Of a DNA stretch of 33,580 nucleotides, positions 6,501-28,386 are shown one piece after another. Both the position numbers and the translations under genes were made by a program. Source of the stretch: an uncultured Clostridia bacterium (GTDB lineage Bacteria > Bacillota > Clostridia > Oscillospirales > Acutalibacteraceae); contig CANRDH010000001.1 in assembly GCA_947629295.1 (NCBI GenBank), forward strand, positions 1 through 33,580, read 5' to 3'. Each line of letters starts with the position of its first letter. Position 1 is the stretch's first letter. Under the pieces are notes generated by a model that was given only the letters and a program-made list of their open reading frames with translations, searched no databases and was not told where the DNA came from.

Positions 6501-6682
6501 GATTATATACCGAGATGCCGATATATGTTTTATACAGCTATGAAAAGCTGAAGATAACCGAGAAACCGGATGTTATGAGAGTGGTTATTGCTTTGTGCTG
6601 CTCATTTACGCTTACACTTACGGCTGCGGGAATACTGACGGCGGTATATTTCAGAAAAAAGAAAAAGTTAAAAATAAAGTAA
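3512..6682 (+). CDS. pulA: Type I pullulanase (GH13) with signal peptide, MucBP-like and starch-binding-like C-terminal modules, and a C-terminal TM anchor
   Basis: TTG start after GGAGGGA, followed by a signal peptide. Pullulanase motif NWGYDPKNYNVPEGSY. GH13 regions I-IV are present: MDVVYNHT, DGFRFDLMG, MYGEPWAA, YMSAHDN. Three MucBP-like repeats (VNIEYKD...TVTYNY, TVNYMKEG...TVTYYYE, VNVIYLDGQG...VLYSYE). Terminal hydrophobic helix VVIALCCSFTLTLTAAGILTAVYF followed by RKKKK. Confidence 0.9.
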   Translation: MPKFKRICSFMLAITTLLGGSAMSVGAATTKEKEKKEEVVYAHELDKQAYNGDDLGAVYKKTETTFKVWAPTAERVAVKLYATGSSEEEGAEEISTTVMKKGKNGVWSLTLKGDKKNLYYTYLVTNGGTTSETADVYSKAVGVNGNRSMIVDLDSTDPEGWDKDSHVLYDDPTDAIVWEVHVRDFSKSEISGVSLKYQGKYLAFTEKGTTVDNKGDVSTCIDYLKKLGVTHVQLMPVYDYATVDETKVNGEEGNWGYDPKNYNVPEGSYSTNPYDGNVRIKEFKQMIKALHDANIGVIMDVVYNHTYTAKGSCFENTVPGYYYRLNEDGSFSDASGCGNETASEHLMYRKYMIDSVLYWTNEYHIDGFRFDLMGIHDVETMNLIRQALDKNVKNGKKIIMYGEPWAAAAPATNEKTAVKENAKLLSDRIGVFNDSFRDAVKGHVFNAQEPGFVQDGSNSDTLKKCIPANTVDSAAFLKQPSQSVTYMSAHDNYTLYDKLVISTKNDESFDERDENIVDMNKLAAAVMMTSQGTVFMQAGEEFARTKLGDDNSYISSDKINQLDWNNLIKYADLDSYYQGLIEIRKNFKPFRDATVESAKKISFSDTDSGVIAYTLENSITKDSEWGYVAVLFNSGDEKAEVTLKQSGKTALPKKWEIVADGSQAGLEGIGVIEGNKITVEPKSALILADKESFDKLALKSDKCIVNIEYKDSESGEVIKKQVLKGAEGDGYTSVRSDFLDVEYDYIGIDGEETGNFTKNPKTVTYNYKKFDGKIVTLTVNYMKEGSEFLQTGETEAAGSYTESVREGSPYNAPIKVIDGMKLKIDKFPQNSFGMAYQDDITVTYYYESIGAEDLVIHYYDDSDRDGVCVYIYAETEDGEKAYTDKAPGSRMTPDSELGDGWYSITVKDIGNVSGLKAKFSDTKGKNPDSTEYDTAHEVWIENGVVTHRGEVNVIYLDGQGNVLDSAVLSGREGIEYQTKKAQFENMKFVSATSNTEGLYTEMPIYVLYSYEKLKITEKPDVMRVVIALCCSFTLTLTAAGILTAVYFRKKKKLKIK

Positions 6683-6718
6683 ATTATTTCATATAATGAT
6701 ACATTATTTCAAAATAAT

Positions 6719-6770
6719 GGACTGCCGCATTAGGCTTGGTAAGCTCAATGCGGCAGTCCTTTAATTTTTT
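6719..6770. terminator. Bidirectional rho-independent terminator between convergent pulA and the pcrA operon
   Basis: Perfect 13-bp stem GGACTGCCGCATT / AATGCGGCAGTCC (6719-6759) followed by TTTAATTTTTT. The opposite strand is also followed by A/T-rich sequence. A second small hairpin CTGCCG/CGGCAG lies at 6782-6802. Confidence 0.8.
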
Positions 6771-6824
6771 ACACTGAACTGCTGCCGTAAAACAGGCGGC
6801 AGTAACAGATAAGCATTAGAAACG

Positions 6825-7790
6825 TCAGTTATCCGTGTTACTCTGTAGGTGCCCTGAAAACGGAGACACGCAGTCATCCCTTGTCAGTGGTATTCCGCTT
6901 TGAAGCTTTCTTATCAGGTAAAGTGATTTTTCTTCGGCTTTGTCCGTAAGCTCAAAAAAGCTTTCACTGTGTATGCTGCCGTCGACGGGAGAAACCCACT
7001 GATTATGTTGTAAATTTGCGGGGTCTTCCGATAAATCTATATCTATATTTCTGAAAAAAACAGATACGATTGGAGGAAGTTTAAAAAGCTTTTCCAGCCC
7101 CTTGACAGAATTTCTTTTTAACGACAGCCTATCATTGAGAACACGCAGAGATATGCGCCAGTCAATCATTGCACGTATTATTTCATGCTCGTTTATGTCA
7201 GGAGCAATATCCGAGGCGGTCAGACAGGAGGTGAGTATTTCAGCCGTTTTATGATAAGCTTGTTTGTCCTTTGGTGAGGTGTCTTCAAGTCTGAATTTAT
7301 ATACCGCTCCTCTTCCCTCGTGCATAAGCATTATTGTATCGAGGGATCCCTCCAGTTTATTGTGATAAACCGAGCTTAGATTTATTTTTTTGGCAATTTG
7401 TGAAAAGTGACTGTTCGGAGAGATTACATCTTTCACCGTTTTTCCGTTTGATATTTTCTCTGCATAATCTACTATATACGGGTGGGCGATCGAATCATAC
7501 GCATAATGCGTTACAAAGCCGAAGGCATAGCTCATTGCCGCGTAATCCTCGGTTACCCTTGAATATTCGTAGAGATAATTGAGAATGATTTCCGCTTTTG
7601 TACCGTGCATGATATGTGATACCTTTGACAGACTTCTTAGCATCTGCCACGGCATCAGCCTGTGTGAAAAAAAGATATCGGGACCGTTTGCTCCCCACAA
7701 AAATATATTACGCTCAAGCTCGGGAATTGAGGGTGATATTTTTCGGAAAACTCTTTCCGCCAAAAGATAATGTGATATTACGGCAGGCAT
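6825..7790 (-). CDS. Zinc-dependent phospholipase C-like family protein (metal-dependent hydrolase fold)
   Basis: N-terminal MPAVISHYLLA, GANGPDIFF, HIMHG and GFVTHYAYDSIAHPY His/Asp-rich motifs are typical of Zn_dep_PLPC-like proteins. AGGAG RBS. The start lies 16 nt downstream of the pcrA stop. Confidence 0.55.
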   Translation of the reverse strand: MPAVISHYLLAERVFRKISPSIPELERNIFLWGANGPDIFFSHRLMPWQMLRSLSKVSHIMHGTKAEIILNYLYEYSRVTEDYAAMSYAFGFVTHYAYDSIAHPYIVDYAEKISNGKTVKDVISPNSHFSQIAKKINLSSVYHNKLEGSLDTIMLMHEGRGAVYKFRLEDTSPKDKQAYHKTAEILTSCLTASDIAPDINEHEIIRAMIDWRISLRVLNDRLSLKRNSVKGLEKLFKLPPIVSVFFRNIDIDLSEDPANLQHNQWVSPVDGSIHSESFFELTDKAEEKSLYLIRKLQSGIPLTRDDCVSPFSGHLQSNTDN

Positions 7791-7806
7791 TTTAACACTC
7801 CTACAG

Positions 7807-10185
7807 TTATAGTATAGTCAGATTTGTATAATTAGCCATAAGCTTTTTTGTTCCCACGCTGTCAAATGCAATTTCAAGAAGAGTATCGGACGCCATGCTT
7901 TTTGCATTAACAATAAGTCCGTCACCGAAGGTTTTATGTCTTACTCTCATTCCCACAGAATAGCTCAGAGAGTTTTTTTGCTTTGCCGGCGCGGAGGATA
8001 TGATTCTGCTTTGCTGCATATCATTTTGCCGCTTCATACCTGATTGTATACGTCCGAAGCCGGGGTTTTCGGGACGCTTATGCACTTTTTCCTCAACAAG
8101 ACCGCCGGGAAGCTCATAAAGAAACCGTGACGGTTTGTTTCTTGAGGTTTTTCCGAAAAGTGTGCGTGAGCCGGAATTTAAGAGATAAAGCTTGTTTTTT
8201 GCTCTTGTTATGCCTACATAGGCAAGTCGTCTTTCCTCCTGCATATCCTCCTCCGACATAAGAGAAAGATAGCCGGGGAAGATATTTTCCTCCATTCCCG
8301 GGATGAATACTGTATCAAATTCAAGGCCCTTTGCGGAATGAAGAGTCATGAGTATGACATAGCTTTCCTCATCGTCGGAATTGTAGCTGTCTATATCACT
8401 CAAAAGTGCAATTTCCTCCAAAAAGCCCTGCAAGGTGGCGTTGTCGGGATTTTCCTGCTCATAGCGGATAATGCTTGATTTAAGCTCTCTGATATTTTCG
8501 ACAGCCTCATCTCCGTGATTGCTTTCATTCAATATAAAGGGTATATAGTCGATTTTTTCTATAAGCTTACTGTACATTTCGGAAACAGAATTGCCGACCT
8601 CAAGCTCATGGGACATTTCCTCTATAATCAGGCAGAATTCTTCAAGCTTCATCCGGGATTTTTGTAAAACCTCAAATTCGTCACTTCTTTTCATCGTTTC
8701 AAACATACTCTGACCGAGCATATCTCCGATTTCCTCAATTCGGGAAACTGTCTTGTCACCTATTGCTCTTTTGGGTATATTTATTATACGCTTCAGCCTT
8801 ACATTGTCATTGTGGTTGCATATTACGCTGAGATATGCTATCATATCACGTATCTCACGTCTTTCGTAAAATCGGCGTCCGCCTATTATTCTGTAGGGTA
8901 TCGCCGAGCGCACCAAAGCACGTTCTATATTCTGCGACTGTGAATTCATCCTGTAAAGTATTGCATAATCCCTGTAGGATTTTCCGTTTGCAATTCCGTC
9001 AAGAACGGTGTTTGCAATAAACGTACTTTCATCGCGTTCGTCAAAGGCATTGTAATGGATAATTTTATCCCCCGCCTCATTATCCGTCCAAAGGGTTTTA
9101 TCCTTTCGGGCAATGTTATTTTTTATTATGAAATTAGCCGCCGATAATATGTTTCTTGTTGAGCGGTAATTCTGTTCAAGCTTTATTGTATAAGCATTTT
9201 CAAAGGTTTTTTCAAAATCAAGAATGTTACTTATACTTGCTCCTCTGAATTTATAAATGCTCTGGTCGTCGTCTCCCACAACGCAAAGATTGTTATGCAC
9301 GCTTGAAAGCAGCCGCACAAGCTCATACTGCATATGGTTTGTGTCCTGATATTCGTCCACCATTATATACTTAAACTGATTGCCGTATTTTTCCAGTACC
9401 TCGGGAAAATTCCGGAGAAGCACTACAGTATTAAATATCATATCGTCAAAATCCATAGCGTCCGACTTTAAGAGTCTGTCTTGATAAGCTTTATATACCT
9501 TTGCTATGGACATAAGTCTGTTGTCTGTACCGGCATATTCCGCAAAATCATCGGGCGTCATCAGATTATCCTTTGCATTGGATATTTCCCGGAGTGCGTC
9601 CTTCGGGGAAATCATTTTTTCGTCTATTCCGAGTACCCGCAGACAGTCCTTTATAAGGCGCTTCTGGTCGTCTGCGTCGTATACCGTAAAATGTGCGCTG
9701 TATCCCAGGAAATAACCGCATCTGCGCAGTATCCTTCCGCAGGCAGAATGAAAGGTTGACGCCCATATGTCAAGACCGCATTCTCCGACCTTAGCGCAGA
9801 TACGCTCTTTAAGCTCTGCTGCTGCCTTATTGGTGAAGGTTATTGCAAGTATTCTCCACGGTGAAGGAGCGGAAACAGAAAGCTTTTGTGCGAGATCGTC
9901 ACGCAGATGTGTTTTTGATTCGGCCGTTTTTCGTATTTCCTCAATTTCTTCATCTGTATAATCCCCGTATATTTCATCGGTTTCATATGCCCGACCCCAA
10001 CGGAGAATATTTGCTATTCTGTTTACGAGGACAGTGGTCTTTCCGCTGCCCGCACCCGCAAGTATAAGCAGGGGGGAGCTTACTCTGTATACCGCCTCCT
10101 GCTGTTTATCGTTAAGGTGTGAAAATTCATTTTCTATAATTTCTCTCCTCAGAGCCGCAAGCTCTGAATAGGCTGCTTCATTCAT
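7807..10185 (-). CDS. pcrA: ATP-dependent DNA helicase PcrA (UvrD family, SF1)
   Basis: Walker A AGAGSGKTTVLVNRIA, motif II MVDEYQDTN, TLHSAKGLEFDTVF, YVGITRAK. The C-terminal tail GMRVRHKTFGDGLIV is typical of PcrA. Confidence 0.93.
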   Translation of the reverse strand: MNEAAYSELAALRREIIENEFSHLNDKQQEAVYRVSSPLLILAGAGSGKTTVLVNRIANILRWGRAYETDEIYGDYTDEEIEEIRKTAESKTHLRDDLAQKLSVSAPSPWRILAITFTNKAAAELKERICAKVGECGLDIWASTFHSACGRILRRCGYFLGYSAHFTVYDADDQKRLIKDCLRVLGIDEKMISPKDALREISNAKDNLMTPDDFAEYAGTDNRLMSIAKVYKAYQDRLLKSDAMDFDDMIFNTVVLLRNFPEVLEKYGNQFKYIMVDEYQDTNHMQYELVRLLSSVHNNLCVVGDDDQSIYKFRGASISNILDFEKTFENAYTIKLEQNYRSTRNILSAANFIIKNNIARKDKTLWTDNEAGDKIIHYNAFDERDESTFIANTVLDGIANGKSYRDYAILYRMNSQSQNIERALVRSAIPYRIIGGRRFYERREIRDMIAYLSVICNHNDNVRLKRIINIPKRAIGDKTVSRIEEIGDMLGQSMFETMKRSDEFEVLQKSRMKLEEFCLIIEEMSHELEVGNSVSEMYSKLIEKIDYIPFILNESNHGDEAVENIRELKSSIIRYEQENPDNATLQGFLEEIALLSDIDSYNSDDEESYVILMTLHSAKGLEFDTVFIPGMEENIFPGYLSLMSEEDMQEERRLAYVGITRAKNKLYLLNSGSRTLFGKTSRNKPSRFLYELPGGLVEEKVHKRPENPGFGRIQSGMKRQNDMQQSRIISSAPAKQKNSLSYSVGMRVRHKTFGDGLIVNAKSMASDTLLEIAFDSVGTKKLMANYTNLTIL

Positions 10186-16072: not shown

Positions 16073-17764
16073 ATGATAAACGGATCCGGTTATAAAAACG
16101 CACTGATATCCGGTGCAAACAATATCGCTTCGCATAGGGCTGAGATCAATGCTCTTAATATTTTTCCCGTTCCCGACGGCGATACGGGTACAAATATGTC
16201 AATGACTGTCAGTGCTGCGGTGGAGTCCTTGGAGGAACAAAGTCCGAAAAGTGTTTCCGAGTGTGCGACTGCTGCGGCTTCTGCAATGATAAAGGGCGCA
16301 AGGGGAAATTCGGGAGTTATACTTTCATTGCTTTTTAAGGGTATAGCTAACGGTCTGGGCGACTGTGATGAAATGGATGGAAAGACCTTTGTATCTGCAT
16401 TCCATGTTGGTGTTGAGATGGCATACAAGGCTGTTATGAACCCGACCGAGGGTACGATACTGACCGTTGCAAGAATGGCGTTTGACGCGGGCAGGGCTGC
16501 GGCTGAAATGGATAATGACCCGATAATAGTTCTGGGTGCGATTTGCTCCGCAGCGCATGAGGCGCTTGATAAGACCCCCGAAATGCTGCCGGTGCTTAAA
16601 AAGGCGGGGGTTGTTGACGCGGGCGGTATGGGTCTTTGTATGATACTTGACGGTATGCTTTCACTTCTCCGTGACGGCGTTATGATAGAGGCTGCGGAGG
16701 AAGCGCCGGAGGCGCGGACCAAGGCTGATTTGAATGATGAGTTTTTCAGGAATGCCGCCGCTGAATTTGACGGCGAGATTAAATATACATATTGTACGGA
16801 ATTTATTATAGGAAGACAAAAGGAGCTTTCGAGAAAGCCTGATGAACTTAGGGATTTCCTTGAGGGGATAGGTGATTGTGTAGTTGTTGCCGAGGATGAG
16901 GATATAATAAAGGTACACGTGCATACGGAAAATCCGGGCAAGGCATTGGAGGAAGCGATAGGCTACGGTGAGCTTCTTACAGTCAAGATAGAAAACATGA
17001 AGGAGCAGCACAGAAAGGCTGCCGAGGAGTACGAAAAAGAAAAAGCAGCCGCGGAGGAGGCTCAAAGAAAGCTTGAGGAGCTTAAGCCGGTTGAGCCTGA
17101 ACAGGATGTCGGCTTTGTTGCCGTTGCTGCGGGTGAGGGTCTTGAAAATGTATTCAGGGAACTCGGATGCTGTCATGTAGTCAGCGGGGGTCAAAGCATG
17201 AACCCGAGTACGGACGATATATACCGTGCCGTTATGGCTACTCCGGCAAAAACCGTGTTTGTACTTCCGAATAACAAGAATATAATACTTGCCGCAGAGC
17301 AGGTTGTTCCGCTTGTTACAGACAGGGAGGTCATTGTAATACCTACAAAAACAATTCCGCAGGGTCTTGTGGCTATGCTTTCTTATGCGAAGGACTCTAC
17401 GCCTGAGCTTAATTGTGAATATATGACTGCGTCCATTTCCAATGTGTCAACAGGACAGGTTACCTATGCGGCGAGAAATTCGGAGTACGGACTTATGAGG
17501 ATAAAGGAGGGTGAGATAATCGCCCTGAATAACGGTAAGCTTACCGTTAAGGAAAAGGATCCGGTAAGGGCTGTGGTGAAGCTTGCTAAGGAAATGATAA
17601 GCAAGGATACCTCGTATGTTAGTCTGATATTCGGCAATGGTATTACCGAAGAACAGGCCGGTGCTGCGGTTGACGGAATAAGGGCAAGGACAGGGATAGA
17701 CGCCGATATTTCAATAATAGACGGCGGGCAGCCCGTGTATTACTTTATTCTTTCTGTTGAGTAA
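16073..17764 (+). CDS. yloV: DAK2 domain fusion protein YloV
   Basis: Dak2 motif PVPDGDTGTNMSMT, GARGNSGVILS, an acidic linker, and a C-terminal DegV-like/YloV half. It lies directly upstream of recG as in Bacillus. GAGGA RBS then ATG 16073. Confidence 0.85.
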   Translation: MINGSGYKNALISGANNIASHRAEINALNIFPVPDGDTGTNMSMTVSAAVESLEEQSPKSVSECATAAASAMIKGARGNSGVILSLLFKGIANGLGDCDEMDGKTFVSAFHVGVEMAYKAVMNPTEGTILTVARMAFDAGRAAAEMDNDPIIVLGAICSAAHEALDKTPEMLPVLKKAGVVDAGGMGLCMILDGMLSLLRDGVMIEAAEEAPEARTKADLNDEFFRNAAAEFDGEIKYTYCTEFIIGRQKELSRKPDELRDFLEGIGDCVVVAEDEDIIKVHVHTENPGKALEEAIGYGELLTVKIENMKEQHRKAAEEYEKEKAAAEEAQRKLEELKPVEPEQDVGFVAVAAGEGLENVFRELGCCHVVSGGQSMNPSTDDIYRAVMATPAKTVFVLPNNKNIILAAEQVVPLVTDREVIVIPTKTIPQGLVAMLSYAKDSTPELNCEYMTASISNVSTGQVTYAARNSEYGLMRIKEGEIIALNNGKLTVKEKDPVRAVVKLAKEMISKDTSYVSLIFGNGITEEQAGAAVDGIRARTGIDADISIIDGGQPVYYFILSVE

Positions 17765-20564: not shown

Positions 20565-20594
20565 TAATATAAAGTGAAAGGCAGGTATAAACCT

Positions 20595-21029
20595 ATGGAA
20601 GAAAAACAAAGCTTTGAAGAATTCAAGAAACAGCTTCTTGAAGAAAATGAAAAAAATTACGGAGATGAGATTCGTGAGGAATACGGAGAGGACGTTTATG
20701 AAACAAGCTCGGATATCCTTGCAAGTCTTACGGAGGAAAAGTGGAGAAGATCCGAGGAACTCAGGATAAAAGCGGAGGATATGCTGCAAAGGCTTGCACC
20801 GCAGGGTGATGCAAAAAGCGACGAGGCGGCGGAGATGGCAAGACTGCACGGAGAATGGGCGAGGATTTTTTGGGAGAGTGAAAATTATTCTCCCGAGGCA
20901 CATCTTGCCGTGGCTGAGATGTACGTAAACGATGAGCGCTTTTCCGCATATTATAATTCGATCGTTGATGGCGGCGCGGAGTTTATATATGAAGCAATAA
21001 AAAATTATTGTGAAAAGTTTATGAAGTAA
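20595..21029 (+). CDS. Stand-alone TipAS antibiotic-recognition domain protein (no MerR HTH)
   Basis: YGDEIREEYGEDV...LTEEKW...AAEMARLHGEWARIFWESENYSPEAHLAVAEMYVNDERFSAYYN...GAEFIYEAIKNY matches the TipAS pattern. The alternative start GTG 20574 cannot be excluded. Confidence 0.65.
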   Translation: MEEKQSFEEFKKQLLEENEKNYGDEIREEYGEDVYETSSDILASLTEEKWRRSEELRIKAEDMLQRLAPQGDAKSDEAAEMARLHGEWARIFWESENYSPEAHLAVAEMYVNDERFSAYYNSIVDGGAEFIYEAIKNYCEKFMK

Positions 21030-21152
21030 CATCTTTATATCCGCTGAATAATATGTATTAGCAGCGAAAACAAGGGAGTTTGAAAATTAAGGGTAAGCCT
21101 TAAGAAACTGCAATGTGTTAGCTGTAAAAATTATAAATGCGGGTGTAGAAAT

Positions 21153-21458
21153 ATGAGTAATCCTTATGATGTATATCCGGAATATCCTTCGGATGAGTGC
21201 GAAGAATGCAAAAAGTTTTCCAAGCATTTTATAGATATAACAACACCTGTCGATATTATGCCGAAGGTTCGCGTGGGTAAGGTAGAGATTGAATGCTGCG
21301 GCGACCCGATAGTAATATGTGACAAAAATAAGAAAGACTGCAATGTCTGCCATTTGGTTTTTGTACAGAAGGTAAGCATAAAGGTTCCGATTAAGTATGA
21401 GTTCAAGGCTGACGTCGGAGAAAGCTGCACAGACTGCTGCGCAGACAAGGATAAATGA
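21153..21458 (+). CDS. Hypothetical small cysteine-rich protein (10 Cys in 101 aa)
   Basis: The ORF is followed immediately by a strong terminator. It has CC pairs (IECCGD, TDCCAD) and a CxxC-like pair (DCNVCH). The RBS is weak and I recognise no family. Confidence 0.5.
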   Translation: MSNPYDVYPEYPSDECEECKKFSKHFIDITTPVDIMPKVRVGKVEIECCGDPIVICDKNKKDCNVCHLVFVQKVSIKVPIKYEFKADVGESCTDCCADKDK

Positions 21459-21467
21459 TTTGCAGCG

Positions 21468-21494
21468 GGGATACGGGAAAACCGTATCCCTTTT
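21468..21494 (+). terminator. Rho-independent terminator after the small Cys-rich ORF
   Basis: 9-bp stem GGGATACGG / CCGTATCCC with loop GAAAA, followed by TTTTCCTGTTTT. Confidence 0.8.
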
Positions 21495-21568
21495 CCTGTT
21501 TTGTGATGGTATAAAAAAACGGGTATTATTTTTGTATAAAATATCGTATTAAATAAGCAATAAAAATA

Positions 21569-21597
21569 TTGATTTTTTAATATAATTTTAGTATAAT
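21569..21597 (+). promoter_or_regulatory. Near-consensus sigma-A promoter about 290 nt upstream of the LRR gene
   Basis: TTGATT (21569-21574), 17-nt spacer, TATAAT (21592-21597). Confidence 0.5.
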
Positions 21598-21759
21598 CTT
21601 TATAGGAGAATTTCATATCCCCATTTCTGCTGCGGAATGTCGGAGATGTTTTGTAAAATGCCTGCGGGCAGATTTCGGAACATCTTATTTTATTCCTAAT
21701 TTTTTGTATATTTATTTTGCAGAGATTAAATAAAATATATAAAAAAATCGTAACAACTC

Positions 21760-21788
21760 TTGAAATTTCATTAAATATTTTGTATATT
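21760..21788 (+). promoter_or_regulatory. Second promoter-like element upstream of the LRR gene
   Basis: TTGAAA (21760-21765), 17-nt spacer, TATATT (21783-21788). Confidence 0.4.
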
Positions 21789-21887
21789 TATATATGTAGA
21801 GTTTATTTTTATTTACAGGAAGGGATTTTGAAGATATGAAATGTTGTTTCTCGATTTTTGAAATTCCACATAAGGCGGTGAGATTGG

Positions 21888-24329
21888 ATGCAATGTAAAC
21901 AATGCGGCAGCGAGTGGAAAACAAATGCGCGCAATGCCGGCATGACAAGCTGTCCGTTCTGCGGAGCTAAGCTTGAGCAGGAGGAAGAAAACAAGATTGT
22001 TTTCCAGAATGCCAAGGAGGCTTTAAGATACATAGTAAAAAGCTATGGTGTAGATGTAATACTCGATGGACAACAGCTTAAAACAGTTCTTGCGGAGCTG
22101 ATTCCCGATCTGAAGCAGGAGCGAAAGCTTTTTATGGATGCTTTTGAGGCGGGAGTGTGCAACGCACTCTACCTTGCACACGCACAGGCAGAGATCGATA
22201 AGTGCATAGCTATACTGCAATCAATAAAGGTGCTTACGCAGGAAGCGTGTATAGCTGAAAAATGGGCGTGCTATGTGGTGGAAACCTATGTTTATGCCCT
22301 TAATTGGAATGTTCCGATGTTTGGAATCACGCCTAATATCCATATGTATCAGATACCCGAAAGCATTGATGAGTCGGGTGAGGGAGGAAAGGACCCCAGA
22401 CTTCTTCAATCAGGAGATTATTATGTGGATCAGAGCGCTTCCGATGATGAAATGTGGAATAAGGCTTCCGAAAACGGCGGTAATGATTTCGTAGCTCCCG
22501 AGCAAAACGAGCAGCAGGAGATACCTGAACAGGATACGGGCGATAAGGCGGAGAAGGAAGAACAGCCTGCCGAAGAGGAGAAAATTGAATCTCCGGTATT
22601 CGATTTTACAGAGGAAACCGAACAGCCTGAACAGCAGGAAGCTCAGCAGCCTGAAATTAATGAAACTGCTGAGGAGGCTCAGGAGACGGAATCCGCAGCT
22701 GTGGATGAAGAGCCTGAACCGCAATCACCTGTATATGATTTTACCGAACAGACTCAGGAACCTGCCGAAGAGGAAAAAATTGAATCTCCGGTATACGATT
22801 TTTCAGAGGAAGCTGAACAGCCCGAACAGGATGAGGCTCAGCAAACAGAAGAAGAAATTAAGCCCCCTGTATACGATTTTACAGAGGAGGCTCAGCAGCC
22901 CGAACAGACTGCCGAGAAGGAGGAACCCGCCGAAGCTCCCAAGCAGCCTGAACAGCCTGCTCATAATACTTCAGATGCGGCAGTTCAACAGAATATGAAT
23001 CCGAATCAGCAGATGCCGTGGGGATATAATCCGTGGATGGCACAGGGTCAGCAGATGCCGGGACAGCAGATGCCGTGGGGATATAATCCGTGGATGGCAC
23101 AGGGTAAGCAAATGCCCGGACAGCCCGGGGAACAGCAGATGCCGTGGGGATATAATCCGTGGATGGCGCCGAATCAGCAGATGCCCGGACAGTCCGGAGA
23201 ACAGCAGATGCCATGGGGATATAATCCGTGGATGGCGCCGAATCAGCAGATGCCGGGACAGCAAATGCCGAATCAACAGGCACAGGGACAGCAAGCGCCT
23301 GTTCAGCCGCAGCAGATGCCTCAGCAGCCGGCGGCCCCCGAACAGCCTGTACCTCAGCCGCAGCCGGCCGAACAGACGGCAATACCATCCAATGAGCCTA
23401 TTCCTGACGCTGCTCCTGCGCAGATCCCGTCAAATGCTCCGATTCCGGACGGCAAACCGGAGATCCCCGCAGCAGAGGAGAGTGCAAAAACGGAAATTCC
23501 TGCCGGTATAAAGGTATTTACAAGCAATGACGCAACCAGATTCAGGGGTGCCGGTCATGCACAGATTCAGGAGGGATATCAGGTTATAGAGGATTGTGCT
23601 TTCTCGGGATATGACACGATTGAATCGATAGAATTGCCTTCAACGATTGTCAGCATTGGTGAAAGGGCTTTTGAGAATTGTAAAAAGCTTATAAACGTCA
23701 ATATTCCCGAAGGCGTTACTGAAATAGGCAGGGGAGCGTTCACAGGATGCTCAAATCTCCCGAAGATAGAGCTGCCGTCAACATTGAGCAGAATAAGACA
23801 GAGCACATTCAGTGGCTGTCAGGCACTTAAGGAGATAAAGCTCCCGTCAGGTTTAAAGGGCCTTGGTAAGCAGGTGTTTCTTAACTGTGAATCACTTTTG
23901 GAGGTAGTAATTCCGGACGGCGTTGAAGAGCTTTCAGAAAACCTGTTCAGCGGATGCCATAGTCTTGTTAAGGTGGTTGTACCGGAAAGTGTTCACGACA
24001 TAAGAAAGAATGTATTCAGTTGGTGTGAGGCACTTAAGACTGTGAATATTCCCGAGGCTGTTAAGGTTATCGGCGCAGGCGCATTTACGGGATGCTCGTC
24101 GCTTAAGACTGTCAATATTCCTAAGAATCTTGAGGTTATTGAATACGGTGCATTCAGCAACTGCAGCTCACTTAAGAGTCTTGTACTTCCGGATTCGATT
24201 ACAACGATTGAAAATAATGCGTTCAACGGCTCCAACAGAACTCTCAGGGTTACCTGTTCAAAGAATAATTCCTATATTAAGCGTTATTGCAGAATGAATC
24301 GTGTAAAGCTTGAAAGCACTGAACAGTAA
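21888..24329 (+). CDS. Zn-ribbon / helical domain / acidic and Q-P-W-rich tandem repeats / BspA-type leucine-rich-repeat protein; no signal peptide or TM detected
   Basis: N-terminal CxxC...CxxC (MQCKQCG...SCPFCG). A ~130-aa helical region follows. Then four SPV[YF]DF[TS]E motifs in an acidic tract and four QQMPWGYNPWMA repeats. The C-terminal ~270 aa hold BspA-like LRR units (IELPSTIVSIGERAFENCKKL, VNIPEGVTEIGRGAFTGCSNL, and others). Confidence 0.85.
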   Translation: MQCKQCGSEWKTNARNAGMTSCPFCGAKLEQEEENKIVFQNAKEALRYIVKSYGVDVILDGQQLKTVLAELIPDLKQERKLFMDAFEAGVCNALYLAHAQAEIDKCIAILQSIKVLTQEACIAEKWACYVVETYVYALNWNVPMFGITPNIHMYQIPESIDESGEGGKDPRLLQSGDYYVDQSASDDEMWNKASENGGNDFVAPEQNEQQEIPEQDTGDKAEKEEQPAEEEKIESPVFDFTEETEQPEQQEAQQPEINETAEEAQETESAAVDEEPEPQSPVYDFTEQTQEPAEEEKIESPVYDFSEEAEQPEQDEAQQTEEEIKPPVYDFTEEAQQPEQTAEKEEPAEAPKQPEQPAHNTSDAAVQQNMNPNQQMPWGYNPWMAQGQQMPGQQMPWGYNPWMAQGKQMPGQPGEQQMPWGYNPWMAPNQQMPGQSGEQQMPWGYNPWMAPNQQMPGQQMPNQQAQGQQAPVQPQQMPQQPAAPEQPVPQPQPAEQTAIPSNEPIPDAAPAQIPSNAPIPDGKPEIPAAEESAKTEIPAGIKVFTSNDATRFRGAGHAQIQEGYQVIEDCAFSGYDTIESIELPSTIVSIGERAFENCKKLINVNIPEGVTEIGRGAFTGCSNLPKIELPSTLSRIRQSTFSGCQALKEIKLPSGLKGLGKQVFLNCESLLEVVIPDGVEELSENLFSGCHSLVKVVVPESVHDIRKNVFSWCEALKTVNIPEAVKVIGAGAFTGCSSLKTVNIPKNLEVIEYGAFSNCSSLKSLVLPDSITTIENNAFNGSNRTLRVTCSKNNSYIKRYCRMNRVKLESTEQ
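22566..22920 (+). repeat. In-frame imperfect duplication (~195-nt period) encoding acidic SPV[YF]DF[TS]E-containing units
   Basis: CCTGCCGAAGAGGAgAAAATTGAATCTCCGGTATtCGATTTT at 22566 recurs at 22761 with two mismatches. Related CCTGTATA[TC]GATTTTAC cores occur at about 22728 and 22866. Confidence 0.8.
23007..23275 (+). repeat. In-frame tandem repeat (57/69/69-nt spacing) encoding four QQMPWGYNPWMA(Q/P)(G/N)(Q/K)QMPGQ units
   Basis: The 35-nt core CAGCAGATGCCGTGGGGATATAATCCGTGGATGGC starts at 23007, 23064 and 23133. A fourth copy at 23202 has one substitution. Confidence 0.9.
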
Positions 24330-24345
24330 ACTAAAATAATGTCGG

Positions 24346-24370
24346 GCGGCAGGAATTCTCCTGCCGCTTT
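24346..24370 (+). terminator. Rho-independent terminator after the LRR gene
   Basis: Stem GCGGCAGGA / TCCTGCCGC (24346-24367) with a 4-nt loop, followed by TTTGCGTTTC. Confidence 0.65.
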
Positions 24371-24402
24371 GCGTTTCAGAAGATAATAAGGAGATGAAGA
24401 TC

Positions 24403-24687
24403 ATGAGATATTTTTCGGATAAAAAGCTTGATGAAATGAGAGACAGAGCAAGAAAAGAGTTTGGCGGCGAGGACGAAAATATTTATCTTGCATACATAGA
24501 TAAAATAGAAAGGCTTGACAAAAGGAACGACGAATACGGTGACGCTCGGGAAGAATTGCTTCTTGCAATAGCTGAACTTGAAAGGGTGACCGAGGGATAT
24601 GTACACAGGGGAAGGGCGGATCCCAATGACGAGGATAATGACGCATTTGAATATGAGAATTATAATTTCGACGGGTTATCTGATTAA
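24403..24687 (+). CDS. Hypothetical small acidic protein (94 aa)
   Basis: AAGGAG at 24388-24393 with ATG 24403 at good spacing; ATG 24394 abuts the RBS. Helical and Asp/Glu-rich, with no recognised family. Followed by the hairpin ACATACTCCC/GGGAGTATGT at 24691-24720. Confidence 0.5.
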   Translation: MRYFSDKKLDEMRDRARKEFGGEDENIYLAYIDKIERLDKRNDEYGDAREELLLAIAELERVTEGYVHRGRADPNDEDNDAFEYENYNFDGLSD

Positions 24688-24914
24688 TTGACATACTCCC
24701 CCACCCGTGAGGGAGTATGTATCGGTTTAACTATAGATATATTGCATAATAAACAAGCTATTTATTATTAAAATAATGTTAAAATTATCTAATATTATAG
24801 TATTTTTTATCAATTTATTAATTATATAACAAAAGGTTAGATGAATTTGTTGCGCTTTTTCGACAAATAATTTTATCGATGTAAAAAAAATTTTTAAAAA
24901 TTTTACAAAAACTA

Positions 24915-24943
24915 TTGATAATTTTTATAAATGATGTTATTAT
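24915..24943 (+). promoter_or_regulatory. Sigma-A-like promoter for the ABC transporter operon
   Basis: TTGATA (24915-24920), 17-nt spacer, TATTAT (24938-24943), within a ~300-nt very AT-rich region. An 8-bp inverted repeat ACCGTTGA/TCAACGGT (24958-24994) lies just downstream and is a possible operator or leader hairpin. Confidence 0.45.
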
Positions 24944-25036
24944 TGATATGGAATTTTACCGTTGAGTACGGAATATGTTACTTAGTTCAACGGTATTACT
25001 TCTTAATATTTTTATTCTAAAAAGGAGCGAAAAACC

Positions 25037-26395
25037 ATGAAATTGAAGAGAGTATTAGCATTAGCTATGGCTGCTGCTATGGCAGGATGTTTCTTCGCAG
25101 GCTGTAATGATGACAGCGGGAACGGGGGTTCCTCAAACGGCGGAGCAGGCAGCACAGGCAGCACAGGCAGCGGAGGCGGAGCAAGCGGCTCTGTTTATTG
25201 GCTTAACTTTAAGCCTGAGTCAGATGGAGTGCTTCAGGAAGTTGCTAAAATGTATACGGATGAGACCGGTGTTCCGGTAAAGGTTGTAACAGCTGCATCC
25301 GGAACCTATGAGCAGACACTTTCGGCCGAGATGGATAAGTCGGATGCTCCGACGCTGTTCGTTATCGGTAACGAGGCAGGCGTAAAGAAGTGGGGCAGCT
25401 ACGCTATGGATCTTAAGGACACCAAGATTGCCGGTGAGCTTAACACCGACGCGTATAACCACTATGATGCTGACGGAAAGCTTGTATCAATAGGTTATTG
25501 CTATGAGAGCTACGGCATTATAGTAAACCCGGATCTCGTAGAGCAGGCAGGTCATAAGGTTGAAGATATTAAGGATTTTGCAAGCCTTAAGACTGTTGTT
25601 GAGGATATACACAACCGTGCAGGCGAGCTTGGCTTCGACGCATTCACCGCATGCGATATGGACGACAGCTCATCATGGCGTTTCACAGGTCATATGGCAA
25701 ACCTTGAGTACTATTATGAGGAGCAGAAGGCAGGCAAAACATGGACAGAGTGTCCGGCTACCATCACAGGCGATTATTTGCCGAACTTCAAGAATCTGTT
25801 TGATCTCTGCATAAATAACAGCATTACGGATCCTAAGGAGCTTGCAACAGGCGGACATGATCCGGATACTCAGTTCAAAGAGGGCAAGGCAGCATTTACG
25901 GTACAAGGCTCATGGACATATGCAGGCGATACCAATTATTCCGGCTCAGTTCCGAATGCCAAGATGATTCCTTACTACTGCGGAGTTGAAGGCGAAGATA
26001 AAGCAGGTCTTAACTGCGGTACAGAAAACTGCTGGGCAGTAAATGCAAATGCTTCCGAAGAGGATCGTAATGCAACAATAGAGTTCATGTATTGGTGTGT
26101 AACAAACGAAGAAGCTTCCAAGAAACTCGTTGAATCATTCGGCGTTATGCCTTATAAGAGCGCTGCCGAGTCCACAAACGGATTCCTTAAGGATGCGGAA
26201 ACTCTTACATCTAACGGTAACTATGTAATGGATTGGGCTACAAACTTCCAGCCGAACGTAGATGAGTATCGTAAAGCTTTGGTTTCTGCTCTTAACACAT
26301 ATTGTGCTGACCAGACGGACGCTAACTGGGATCAGGTTAAATCAGCGTTCGTTGACGGTTGGGCAACACAGTATAATGCAGCTAATGCAGGTTAA
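25037..26395 (+). CDS. Carbohydrate ABC transporter substrate-binding lipoprotein (family 1 SBP)
   Basis: Signal peptide with lipobox FFAGC, a Gly/Ser-rich tether (GNGGSSNGGAGSTGSTGSGGGASGS), then an SBP_bac_1-like body of typical size. Confidence 0.85.
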   Translation: MKLKRVLALAMAAAMAGCFFAGCNDDSGNGGSSNGGAGSTGSTGSGGGASGSVYWLNFKPESDGVLQEVAKMYTDETGVPVKVVTAASGTYEQTLSAEMDKSDAPTLFVIGNEAGVKKWGSYAMDLKDTKIAGELNTDAYNHYDADGKLVSIGYCYESYGIIVNPDLVEQAGHKVEDIKDFASLKTVVEDIHNRAGELGFDAFTACDMDDSSSWRFTGHMANLEYYYEEQKAGKTWTECPATITGDYLPNFKNLFDLCINNSITDPKELATGGHDPDTQFKEGKAAFTVQGSWTYAGDTNYSGSVPNAKMIPYYCGVEGEDKAGLNCGTENCWAVNANASEEDRNATIEFMYWCVTNEEASKKLVESFGVMPYKSAAESTNGFLKDAETLTSNGNYVMDWATNFQPNVDEYRKALVSALNTYCADQTDANWDQVKSAFVDGWATQYNAANAG

Positions 26396-26441
26396 TTCAA
26401 CTGCTGAAGTTTGCTGAAGTAATTTTAGCCTGATGCAAAGC

Positions 26442-26469
26442 GGCGGGCGTAATCGCCCGCCCCTTTTTA
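26442..26469 (+). terminator. Intercistronic hairpin/attenuator between the SBP and permease genes
   Basis: 8-bp GC stem GGCGGGCG / CGCCCGCC with loop TAAT, followed by CCTTTTTAT. Confidence 0.7.
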
Positions 26470-26492
26470 TCTGTATTAAGGAGATGATTTTT

Positions 26493-27476
26493 TTGACTAA
26501 TGATGAACTCGCAACAAAGAATGAGCCGTTGCAAAATGAAGAAGTGCATGAATCTCCTTTGGCGAAGTTAAGTCGTTTTTATTGGGGAAAGAACAGGAAG
26601 AGTCCTTTGACAAGGCCCTTGAGAAAGTGGTTTATTCTGTTTTTGGGTCCCGTTACAGCAGCTTTTATAATCGGTTTTGTATGGCCCTTTTTGCAGGGTA
26701 TATATCTGTCCCTTTGTAATTTTCAGCTTATAAAGGACGCTAAATTTGTAGGCTTCGGAAACTACATAAAGGCGTTCACAGACGCAAGCTTTATGCGTTC
26801 GTTCTGGTATACAGCCTTGTTTGCAATCGTAAGCCTGCTGCTCATAAATATTCTTGCTTTTGCGGTAGCATACGCTCTGACATTGGGAATTAAGGGAAGC
26901 AATCTTTTCAGAACGGTGTTCTTTATGCCTAACCTTATAGGCGGTATCGTTCTCGGTTATATTTGGTCAATGATTTTTGACGGTGTGCTTTCCGCTTTCG
27001 GAACATCTATTGTTCAGAACAGTACATGGGGTTTCTGGGGCTTGATAATCCTTATGTGCTGGCAGCAAATCGGATATATGATGATTATTTATATTGCCGG
27101 ACTCAATGCTATCCCCGAAGATATGCTCGAGGCTGCTAAGATTGACGGAGCTAACAAATGGCAGACACTTTGGAGGGTTACCATTCCCAACCTTATGCCT
27201 TCAATAACAATCTGCACATTCCTGTCTCTGACAAACGGCTTTAAGCTCTTCGACCAGAACCTTGCACTTACATCCGGTCAGCCTATCGTTATGCAGGACG
27301 GTGTTCCAATCAAACAGACAGAAATGCTTGCTTTGAATATTTATAACACGTTCTATAGTTCAAATAACTCTGCACGTGGTACGGCACAGGCAAAGGCTGT
27401 TATATTCTTTATCCTTGTTGCTGCAATAGGTCTTGCACAGCTTGCGTATACAAGAAAGAAGGAGGTGCAGCAGTGA
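26493..27476 (+). CDS. Carbohydrate ABC transporter permease (MalF/LacF-like)
   Basis: Six-TM profile and EAA loop LEAAKIDGANKWQTLWRVTIPNL. The track ORF (from 26433) runs through the upstream terminator. AAGGAG at 26478-26483 favours TTG 26493; ATG 26484 abuts the RBS. Confidence 0.85.
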   Translation: MTNDELATKNEPLQNEEVHESPLAKLSRFYWGKNRKSPLTRPLRKWFILFLGPVTAAFIIGFVWPFLQGIYLSLCNFQLIKDAKFVGFGNYIKAFTDASFMRSFWYTALFAIVSLLLINILAFAVAYALTLGIKGSNLFRTVFFMPNLIGGIVLGYIWSMIFDGVLSAFGTSIVQNSTWGFWGLIILMCWQQIGYMMIIYIAGLNAIPEDMLEAAKIDGANKWQTLWRVTIPNLMPSITICTFLSLTNGFKLFDQNLALTSGQPIVMQDGVPIKQTEMLALNIYNTFYSSNNSARGTAQAKAVIFFILVAAIGLAQLAYTRKKEVQQ

Positions 27477-27477
27477 T

Positions 27478-28386
27478 ATGAAATTAAAAAAAGGTTCCGA
27501 TGCCGCTGTTAATCCCCATGAAGATATGCTTAAGGGTTCAAAGCTCTCAAATGAGAAGAAACAGCGAAAGGCTTTAACTATTGTTCTTGCAGTTATTTGT
27601 ATAGTTTATGTTTTTCCTGTTTTGGCAGTTGTTGTAAACTCCTTTAAAACCAACACTGCTGTTAAGACAAATACCTTTGAATTGCCTTTCGGTGAAATGT
27701 GGGCAGGATTCGATAACTTTATAAAGGGTATGACCTTCGGTAACTACCCGTTTATAGAAAGTGTTAAGAACAGTCTTATTATTACTTTGATATCAACTGC
27801 TCTTATAGTAATTTGCACATCAATGGCAGCTTGGTATGTAGCTCGTGTAAATTCGTTGTTCTGCAAGGTGATTTATTACCTTTGCGTATTCTCAATGGTA
27901 GTACCCTTCCAGATGGTTATGTTCACACTTTCAAAAACAGCAGACAACCTTAATCTCAACACACCATGGACCATACCGATAATATATCTTGGTTTCGGTG
28001 CCGGTCTTGCAATCTTTATGTTCGTTGGCTTTGTAAAATCGATACCGATTGAAATTGAGGAAGCTGCTGCTATTGACGGATGCGGACCTATCAGAACATA
28101 TTTTATGATTGTATTCCCTATGCTTCGTCCCACCATGATTTCTGTTGCAATTCTTGAAATTATGTGGATATGGAATGACTATCTCCTTCCGTATCTTGTA
28201 TTGGATATAAACGAATACAGAACTATTCCGATTCATATCCAGTATCTCAAAGGAAGCTACGGTACCGTTGACCTCGGTGCAACAATGGCAATCATACTTA
28301 TGAGTATCATACCTGTAATAGTATTCTATCTCATATGCCAGAAGTATATTATCAAAGGTGTTGCTGCAGGTGCGGTAAAGGGTTAA
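27478..28386 (+). CDS. Carbohydrate ABC transporter permease (MalG/LacG-like)
   Basis: AAGGAGG at 27459-27465 then ATG 27478, 2 nt after the upstream stop. EAA loop EEAAAIDGCGPIRTYFMIVFPMLRP. Confidence 0.85.
   Translation: MKLKKGSDAAVNPHEDMLKGSKLSNEKKQRKALTIVLAVICIVYVFPVLAVVVNSFKTNTAVKTNTFELPFGEMWAGFDNFIKGMTFGNYPFIESVKNSLIITLISTALIVICTSMAAWYVARVNSLFCKVIYYLCVFSMVVPFQMVMFTLSKTADNLNLNTPWTIPIIYLGFGAGLAIFMFVGFVKSIPIEIEEAAAIDGCGPIRTYFMIVFPMLRPTMISVAILEIMWIWNDYLLPYLVLDINEYRTIPIHIQYLKGSYGTVDLGATMAIILMSIIPVIVFYLICQKYIIKGVAAGAVKG

Follow-up and report, generated by a model that had tools for sequence, protein, structure and literature searches.

Where does a protein with BspA-type leucine-rich repeats (LRR) act when nothing in its sequence marks it for export? 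The question is raised by a gene of an uncultured Clostridia bacterium of the family Acutalibacteraceae (assembly GCA_947629295.1). We have analysed a stretch of 33,580 nucleotides of its contig CANRDH010000001.1, which we call the window; it contains the gene for a protein of 813 amino acids (aa) which starts with a zinc ribbon and ends with an array of LRR_5 repeats. The source is a metagenome-assembled genome (MAG) of 1.6 Mb in 213 contigs, which is 79% complete. A preliminary description of the sequence had proposed an intracellular binding or sensor scaffold rather than an adhesin. We find that the gene is conserved in several genera, that it is almost always paired with a small downstream gene and that its N-terminal head recurs in front of many different tails. 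From the sequence we think that the 813-aa protein may be a cytoplasmic, tethered binding scaffold, a reading to which we give a probability of about 0.5.

We will start with the signs of export. The highest Kyte-Doolittle value over 19 residues (KD-19) in the protein is 1.09, when a transmembrane (TM) segment is expected at roughly 1.6; this is a test by hydropathy only, which is a crude one. No dockerin, SLH, cell-wall-binding or other anchoring domain was found with Pfam. By hydropathy and Pfam the protein has none of the features of a BspA-like secreted or surface adhesin: signal peptide, lipobox, membrane anchor or wall anchor. An in-frame start further upstream, which might have added a signal, is not present either. 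A stop codon lies two codons 5' of the ATG, and a Shine-Dalgarno-like element of the AAGGCGGTGA type precedes the ATG in 15 of 16 orthologue upstream regions (the sequence compared for locus L050 ends before this point). Its GCGGTGA core is invariant in 12 of the 12 aligned 5' untranslated regions (5'-UTRs). The start is therefore firm and leaves no room for an N-terminal extension able to add a signal peptide. The same genome has seven other open reading frames (ORFs) with LRR_5 repeats: six have a hydrophobic N-terminus of the signal or lipoprotein type and the seventh is truncated where its contig stops. Thus the 813-aa protein is an exception in its own genome.

The protein has a well defined order of parts: zinc ribbon, helical domain, a short constrained motif, a long disordered region with repeats and the LRR_5 array. 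The ribbon and the helical domain together form what we call the head. This order is identical in all full-length orthologues, including SPV-x-D/E motifs and [YW]NPW repeats. The four cysteines of the ribbon (C3, C6, C22 and C25) had already been noticed; all 23 aligned orthologues have them without exception, and the ribbon is nearly invariant in distant relatives. It scores below the Pfam cutoffs both for the Zn_Ribbon_TF or TFIIB-type zinc ribbon (PF08271, 20.0 bits, cutoff 29) and for the LysW ribbon (PF21344, 15.2 bits, cutoff 27), so that we consider it a generic ribbon which falls outside the Zn_Ribbon_TF family. The closest solved structures are also generic ribbons: the LysW-type 5k2m_E (E 0.018) and subunit P of RNA polymerase. 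The helical domain that had been proposed behind the ribbon is apparent in the AlphaFold2 model of the head, obtained from an alignment of 44 sequences. The mean predicted local distance difference test score (pLDDT) of the model is 87, with seven helices at residues 42–137 which have values of 95–98.

Directly behind the head we find the most constrained piece of the whole protein, the 20-residue motif NWNVPMFGITPNIHMYQIPE. Its mean pairwise identity over the 23 orthologues is 93%, to be compared with 75% in the helical domain, 74% in the ribbon, 63% in the LRR part and 39–56% in the disordered parts. In the monomer model this region has low confidence and is unstructured (pLDDT 47–61). We read it as a putative docking site for a conserved partner.

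The disordered region covers residues 161–545: it has about 385 aa, more than the 330 aa of low-complexity repeats first estimated. In its acidic part the motif SPV[FY]DF starts at residues 238, 283, 303 and 329. It is found in 4–10 copies in 11 of the 14 orthologous proteins compared, the present one included. A search with this pattern was negative in G166, G012 and G114, which have SPVIDF, SPVFDP and SPVFEA respectively, and also in L023. The repeats QQMPWGYNPWMA which follow were detected with periods of 57 and 69 nt by the tandem-repeat finder, with 91–95% matches. Their [YW]NPW core is present in 13 of the 14 orthologues compared.

The LRR part is ordinary. It matches LRR_5 (PF13306) with 215.7 bits, when the cutoff is 27.7 (E 1.9e-64), in two stretches at about residues 566–790, in agreement with the approximately 270 aa of BspA-like repeats recognized before. 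The last 29 residues form a cap with an isoelectric point of 9.9. The closest solved chains are 4fs7_A (E 2e-65), 4gt6_A, described as a 'cell surface protein', Treponema TpLRR (6mlx_A) and pneumococcal PcpA (4cp6_A). The C-terminal 270 aa are like these BspA-type surface proteins, and the array presumably forms the same curved binding solenoid. The rest of the protein is different from them: signal peptide, lipobox, TM segment and wall anchor are missing, while the zinc-ribbon and helical head, the disordered tether of 385 aa and a small acidic partner gene are additional.

A scan of one genome per species gave 19 related loci, 13 of them with full-length orthologues. Their contigs are labelled as MAGs of uncultured bacteria, either Ruminococcus-like or Clostridia, from the gut of rabbits and from rumen. 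Three more orthologues were found by a genome search, in G166, G114 and G012. In a word-index search 27 of 30 head matches carry LRR_5. The whole block is syntenic in close relatives, and across genera the gene is kept together with its downstream partner. The gene had been placed in a small accessory stretch, which is only partly right: since it has orthologues in several genera, the term is overstated. In two loci (L019, 6001–8638, and L028, about 5989–8420) the reading frame of the large gene is broken inside the repeats, so that two ORFs are seen; either a frameshift or a wrong assembly of the repeats is the cause. The repeat region of L050 contains a run of N.

The preliminary description had not mentioned the gene which lies directly 3' of the large one. 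It codes for a small acidic protein. All 18 loci in which the 3' end of the large gene is included have it in this position, and so does G166, even where the other neighbours differ. In G114 and G012 it was not found: the next genes there code for a PucR-type regulator and an SPFH protein. The small protein has an invariant N-terminus, MRYFSD, and an equally invariant acidic-aromatic tail, DEDxDA[FY]EYENY. AlphaFold2 gives a bundle of three helices (residues 9–73) and a disordered tail, with a pLDDT of 72.6. It belongs to 103 clusters, every one of them unnamed or 'hypothetical'. No family was found in Pfam, NCBIfam or PADLOC, no Foldseek match at E ≤ 1e-3 and no PDB profile match beyond chance. 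We also considered its tail, EYENY[DN][FY], as a mimic of SPV[FY]DF, but the resemblance is loose and two genomes without the small gene are too few for a correlation.

Between the two genes there is a hairpin with the stem GCGGCAGG/CCTGCCGC. Its sequence is the same in 14 of 14 loci with the small gene, with a G-U variant, CCTGTCGC, in three of them and no compensatory change. The two loci which have no small gene do not have the hairpin: ordinary terminators are found instead. It occurs only once in the genome of 1.6 Mb. The stem is invariant while its flanks diverge, which points to a role beyond that of a plain terminator: as an attenuator or as a binding site, it might set the ratio of both products.

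The wide distribution of the head had also escaped the preliminary description. We searched residues 1–165 with HMMER (phmmer) against 1.84 billion representatives of clusters at 50% identity. At least 662 representatives match at E ≤ 1e-3 and 97 at E ≤ 1e-10. Among the matches listed, 149 of 150 begin within the first 37 residues (the exception is P0176), and most of them align from residue 1 to about 140–150. A CxxC...CxxC pattern is present in 140 of 147 distant representatives. The 813-aa protein has the features which define the family: a CxxC...CPFC ribbon at the N-terminus and, behind it, a helical domain of about 100 aa, both of which can be aligned over residues 1–145.

The tails are very different from each other. 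We have scanned with Pfam 73 of the 150 head proteins listed, choosing the longer ones. Sel1 repeats are found in 22 of them, DUF6273 in 13 (including P0047, which also has an S1 domain), MORN in 6, LRR_5 in 5, RCC1 in 4, FGE-sulfatase in 3 (one partial) and only TPR in 3. DUF5050, protein kinase, the L7/L12 C-terminal domain, Hsp70, EF-G domains, ABC ATPase, NPCBM and DUF7910 appear in single cases. Four proteins have weak or ribbon-only matches and five have none. A TIR domain is present in none of the 73. The combination of zinc ribbon and LRR_5 recurs. Besides being kept in the orthologues, it is found in five further clusters among distant relatives (P0040, P0045, P0062, P0081 and P0145), none of which has a segment at KD ≥ 1.6. 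One more protein, P0006 (449 aa, on a single contig of 6.6 kb), has the head and PIFDF acidic repeats fused to a flavodoxin instead of LRR_5: either the tails have been swapped in nature or the assembly is chimeric.

Some members of the family do have membrane segments. A window with KD-19 ≥ 1.6 is found in 21 of 147 representatives; in eight of the 147 a strong helix (KD ≥ 2.19) lies at residues 157–205, directly behind the head. In these eight members the head must therefore be in the cytoplasm and the tail outside. P0057 and P0143 (DUF6273), P0094 (MORN) and P0166 (FGE-sulfatase) have the same N-terminal head (E 1e-9 to 1e-13), which a linker connects to a repeat or binding domain; however they have a strong TM helix at residues 167–191 which is absent in the 813-aa protein. 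Other fusions are of a cytoplasmic type: P0122 has a protein kinase behind the head and ahead of a late TM segment, P0047 has S1 and P0042 has L7/L12 C-terminal domains.

We did not find the head in any catalogue. Within the 73 proteins scanned no Pfam family covers it, apart from zinc-ribbon models below threshold in P0039, P0046 and P0049. Pfam, NCBIfam and PADLOC gave no model for the head, and the ESM Atlas gave unnamed clusters only. The head model had no Foldseek match in the PDB at E ≤ 1e-3. The best VIA-align score (Z 6.0, a designed repeat protein) was dismissed, being within noise for helical models. A profile search against PDB sequences gave generic zinc-ribbon or chance matches only (E ≥ 0.018), and tblastn of the head against phage and plasmid collections gave no match. 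The head appears to be a new, uncatalogued domain family of the type 'one head, many tails'. In the literature we found nothing which combines 'LRR_5' with 'zinc ribbon', and the titles and abstract openings on signal peptides of BspA-like proteins in Firmicutes did not describe such an architecture. The signal-less architecture and the gene pair with its invariant hairpin also appear to be new.

How might such a protein work? We suggest that the head, with NWNVPMFGITPNIHMYQIPE behind it, would dock to a conserved intracellular partner or structure. The approximately 385 disordered residues would be a tether with multivalent acidic-aromatic SPV[FY]DF motifs and aromatic, Q/P-rich PWGYNPW repeats. 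At its far end the LRR_5 solenoid would capture a protein ligand. The large gene would be transcribed from a vegetative promoter of the sigma-A type, and the acidic three-helix protein encoded downstream, behind the sequence-invariant hairpin, may be an accessory or regulatory partner in contact with the large one. The intracellular scaffold proposed before is favoured indirectly by the lack of an export signal, by the contrast with the signal-bearing LRR_5 genes of the same genome, by the members with a membrane helix behind the head, by the cytoplasmic-type fusions of the head and by the neighbours of some distant head genes, which resemble the cytoplasmic TerY-P triad (see below). The vegetative type of the promoter and the conservation of the architecture, above all of the head, agree with it. 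Its sensor part did not find similar support.

Several points weigh against this scaffold. The lack of a signal is judged by hydropathy, with the limits given above. The tails of the head family include LRR_5, DUF6273, MORN, FGE-sulfatase, NPCBM, RCC1 and DUF5050, which we take to be typical extracellular domains of Firmicutes. In some head proteins DUF6273, MORN and FGE-sulfatase do sit behind a TM helix, so that forms without such a helix could reach the outside by another route. With its acidic and Pro-rich composition, the linker looks like a stalk which spans the wall. The nearest solved LRR chains include the 'cell surface protein' 4gt6_A, PcpA and TpLRR, and the last two are presumably surface proteins. 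No kinase, vWA or PP2C gene is found near the 813-aa gene within the window.

The kinds of tails, which are the main argument against the scaffold, lead to the alternative of a protein which acts outside the cell. It could be a surface or released adhesin which leaves by a non-classical exit, either through a translocator which recognizes the head, perhaps with the small protein as a chaperone, or by lysis; LRR_5 would then bind an external target. The solved relatives of the array, the signal-bearing LRR_5 genes of the same genome and the extracellular kinds of tails, placed behind a TM helix in 8 of 147 members, all speak for it. The small helical protein encoded beside the gene is reminiscent of the chaperones or partners whose genes accompany some secretion substrates. 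On contig C7 the genome also codes for EssC of a type VII system and for five WXG100-like proteins. On the other hand the protein has no signal, TM segment or anchoring domain, by hydropathy and Pfam, and an N-terminal zinc ribbon folds around zinc in the cytoplasm. Two of the genomes with an orthologue do not have the small gene. Type VII export in particular does not work as a general explanation: neither protein matches WXG100 (PF06013) or LXG in Pfam at E ≤ 0.1. Furthermore G166, which belongs to the same genus and is 100% complete, carries both genes without any match to EssC, and with only a weak WXG100 match inside a frame of 1448 aa. G114, which has an orthologue, does not match EssC either. 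The non-classical route that had been offered as an alternative thus loses its type VII form. The other forms are kept, and we consider an extracellular role doubtful. The type VII region of the source genome lies at about 9297–19862 of contig C7, where EssC (a frame of 1680 aa) is followed by the five WXG100-like genes. Among the latter there is a signal-bearing LRR_5 gene of the lipoprotein type, with 357 aa (16554–17624).

A different possibility keeps the protein inside the cell, as the receptor arm of intracellular conflict or defence signalling. An invader protein would be sensed by the LRR, and kinase, vWA and phosphatase modules encoded elsewhere would receive the signal through the head. 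It is suggested by the neighbours of distant head genes: out of seven loci inspected, three are beside a protein kinase gene and three beside a vWA gene, one of these also beside PP2C. In three genomes of the same bacterial family the head genes adjoin protein kinase and vWA genes, and PP2C in the first (L051, 30–5083; L052, 3775–6806; L053, 724–4930). G281 has head paralogues without the ribbon, arranged in tandem, in which adjacent copies end in Sel1 or LRR_5 tails (L056, 7543–10887; L057, 6699–8847); radical-SAM, vWA and FtsK-like genes are found near them.

These contexts resemble the cytoplasmic TerY-P triad. This triad is described as a vWA protein, a PP2C phosphatase and a Ser/Thr kinase with a zinc ribbon, which form a phosphorylation switch with antiphage relatives; modules of this type are reported to act as stand-alone antiphage systems (PMC10542128). 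The analogy applies to the head genes which adjoin protein kinase, vWA or PP2C genes (L051–L053, L057). However the ribbon of TerY-P is on the kinase, according to the same text, whereas here it is on the repeat protein, and the 813-aa gene has no adjacent vWA, PP2C or Ser/Thr kinase gene in the window. There is also a parallel with the effector-associated domains (EADs) of bacterial conflict systems. They are described as small N-terminal helical modules which precede interchangeable sensor or effector domains, including repeats and FGE-sulfatase-type domains (Kaur et al. 2020, PMC7159879). The head, an N-terminal adaptor with interchangeable repeat or FGE-sulfatase tails, is similar in logic only: we obtained no sequence or fold match to EAD or Death-fold models (Pfam at E ≤ 0.1; Foldseek; VIA-align with its best Z of 6.0). 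No NTPase, vWA or MoxR genes are found near the 813-aa gene.

Other data speak against a role in defence. PADLOC-DB 2.0 matches no family for the large protein, its small partner or two neighbours (E ≤ 0.1), and no defence, kinase or vWA gene lies near the large gene. Within its clade the latter is well conserved, with a stable synteny and no patchy distribution, and its head has no match in phage and plasmid collections. We consider this role quite unlikely for the present protein.

The expression signals of the gene bear on a further alternative. An element TTGAA[AT]-17-TATA[GTA]T is seen upstream in 16 of 16 orthologues; the pattern search found it in 15, the remaining one being L050 with TATTAT. 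The conservation of this promoter in the form TTGAAA-17-TATA[GT]T argues for vegetative expression: it fits the housekeeping sigma factor rather than the sporulation sigmas. The AT-rich region 5' of the gene has 429 nt, practically the 430 nt first reported, and the terminators which had been noticed on both sides correspond to the hairpins upstream of the gene and between the two genes (Table 1). A further putative hairpin in the 5'-UTR is weakly supported. Its energy is no better than that of shuffled sequences (z −0.46). In 12 orthologues 80.8% of the cells pair and four of nine pairs change both sides, a result reached by 4 of 500 shuffles. RNAalifold gave no consensus structure on the 5'-UTR alignment, and L049 has a short leader without this hairpin. 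A search of Rfam over positions 20900–25100 gave a single chance match to a miRNA (E 0.66). An RNA library contains a single contig of 183 nt identical to positions 24047–24229, which is too little to show transcription or co-transcription.

With these signals in view, it is very unlikely that we have a spore-surface protein, made in the cytoplasm of the mother cell and deposited on the coat or exosporium, a route for which a signal peptide is not necessary, with the repeats as a flexible outer layer and the LRR exposed: the promoter, TTGAAA-17-TATAGT, fits sigma-A, no conserved sigma-E- or sigma-K-like element is seen in the 16 upstream regions and neither protein matches sporulation families in Pfam or NCBIfam. 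In favour of the mother-cell route, SpoIVA is present in the four orthologue-bearing genomes tested, and outer spore proteins often have low-complexity repeats. A Cys-rich gene found in nine loci has also been counted in its favour: it has a look-alike in the Atlas (score 0.77, a weak lead), in a cluster with 13% CryBP1 members. However a terminator and 429 nt separate this gene from the 813-aa gene.

The features of the gene pair are collected in Table 1.

Table 1. Features of the two-gene unit, with positions counted from the first nucleotide of the window
Feature	Position	Strand	Basis
Upstream terminator-like hairpin	21467..21491		−20.4 kcal/mol, z −3.2
Sigma-A-type promoter: TTGAAA, 17-nt spacer, TATATT	21760..21788	+	10 of 12 consensus positions; about 100 nt before the ATG
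Putative 5'-UTR hairpin just before the ribosome-binding site	21822..21867	+	minimum free energy (MFE) −13.9 kcal/mol
Shine-Dalgarno-like AAGGCGGTGA	21872..21881	+	read from the sequence; 6 nt before the ATG
813-aa gene: zinc ribbon, helical head, disordered repeats, LRR_5	21888..24329	+	ORF listing, translation, Pfam
Four-Cys zinc ribbon, residues 1–30 (C3, C6, W10, C22, P23, F24, C25)	21888..21977	+	alignment
Helical domain of the head, residues 36–138	21993..22301	+	AlphaFold2
Extended motif NWNVPMFGITPNIHMYQIPE, residues 139–158	22302..22361	+	orthologue alignment
Acidic disordered region with four SPV[FY]DF motifs, residues 161–375	22368..23012	+	net charge −57
Q/P/M/W/Y-rich repeats QQMPWGYNPWMA, four copies, residues 376–480	23013..23327	+	tandem-repeat finder
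Pro/Ala-rich linker, residues 481–545	23328..23522	+	P 25%, A 18%
BspA-type LRR_5 array and basic C-terminal cap, residues 546–813	23523..24326	+	Pfam PF13306
Intergenic hairpin GCGGCAGG-loop-CCTGCCGC, then TTTGCGTTT	24338..24375	+	MFE −24.2 kcal/mol, z −4.15
94-aa acidic partner gene	24403..24687	+	conserved Met at 24403; the ORF listing starts at 24394 (97 codons)
Terminator-like hairpin after the small gene	24691..24720	+	MFE −16.9 kcal/mol, z −2.7

The other neighbours of the 813-aa gene in the window are recG, a gene with a TipAS domain and an ABC sugar-transport operon. The TipAS gene (20574–21029, +) codes for a protein of 151 aa with the antibiotic-recognition domain and no obvious MerR DNA-binding part; it is kept near the LRR gene in nine loci, in two of them on the opposite strand. 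The Cys-rich ORF (21153–21458, +) has 101 aa with 12 Cys and no family match; in the nine related loci it is upstream of the LRR gene, with 40–85% identity. The operon (25037–28386, +) is an ordinary one for sugar uptake, with a lipoprotein-type SBP_bac_8 protein and two permeases; its synteny is limited to the closest relatives.

A more general picture can be drawn from the head family, although we consider it rather unlikely in its full form. The head would define a large and so far undescribed class of intracellular receptor-like proteins of Bacillota which redeploy in the cytoplasm repeats of an 'extracellular type' (LRR_5, Sel1, MORN, RCC1, DUF6273). It would be an adaptor to a shared hub, which in some lineages would be a kinase/vWA/PP2C switch. 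In the present subfamily a multivalent assembly would be driven by the prion-like PWGYNPW repeats and the acidic SPVYDF repeats. The small acidic partner would tune it, and the dosage of this partner would be set by the invariant intergenic hairpin.

In gut and oral bacteria, proteins of the LRR_5 or BspA type receive the annotation of surface adhesins as a matter of routine. A conserved subfamily without signal and with a cytoplasmic-type head would bar such blind annotation. Naming the partner of the head would explain hundreds of unannotated proteins of gut Firmicutes. The two-gene unit, with its invariant peptide motif, its short linear repeats and its RNA hairpin of invariant sequence, offers a tractable entry.

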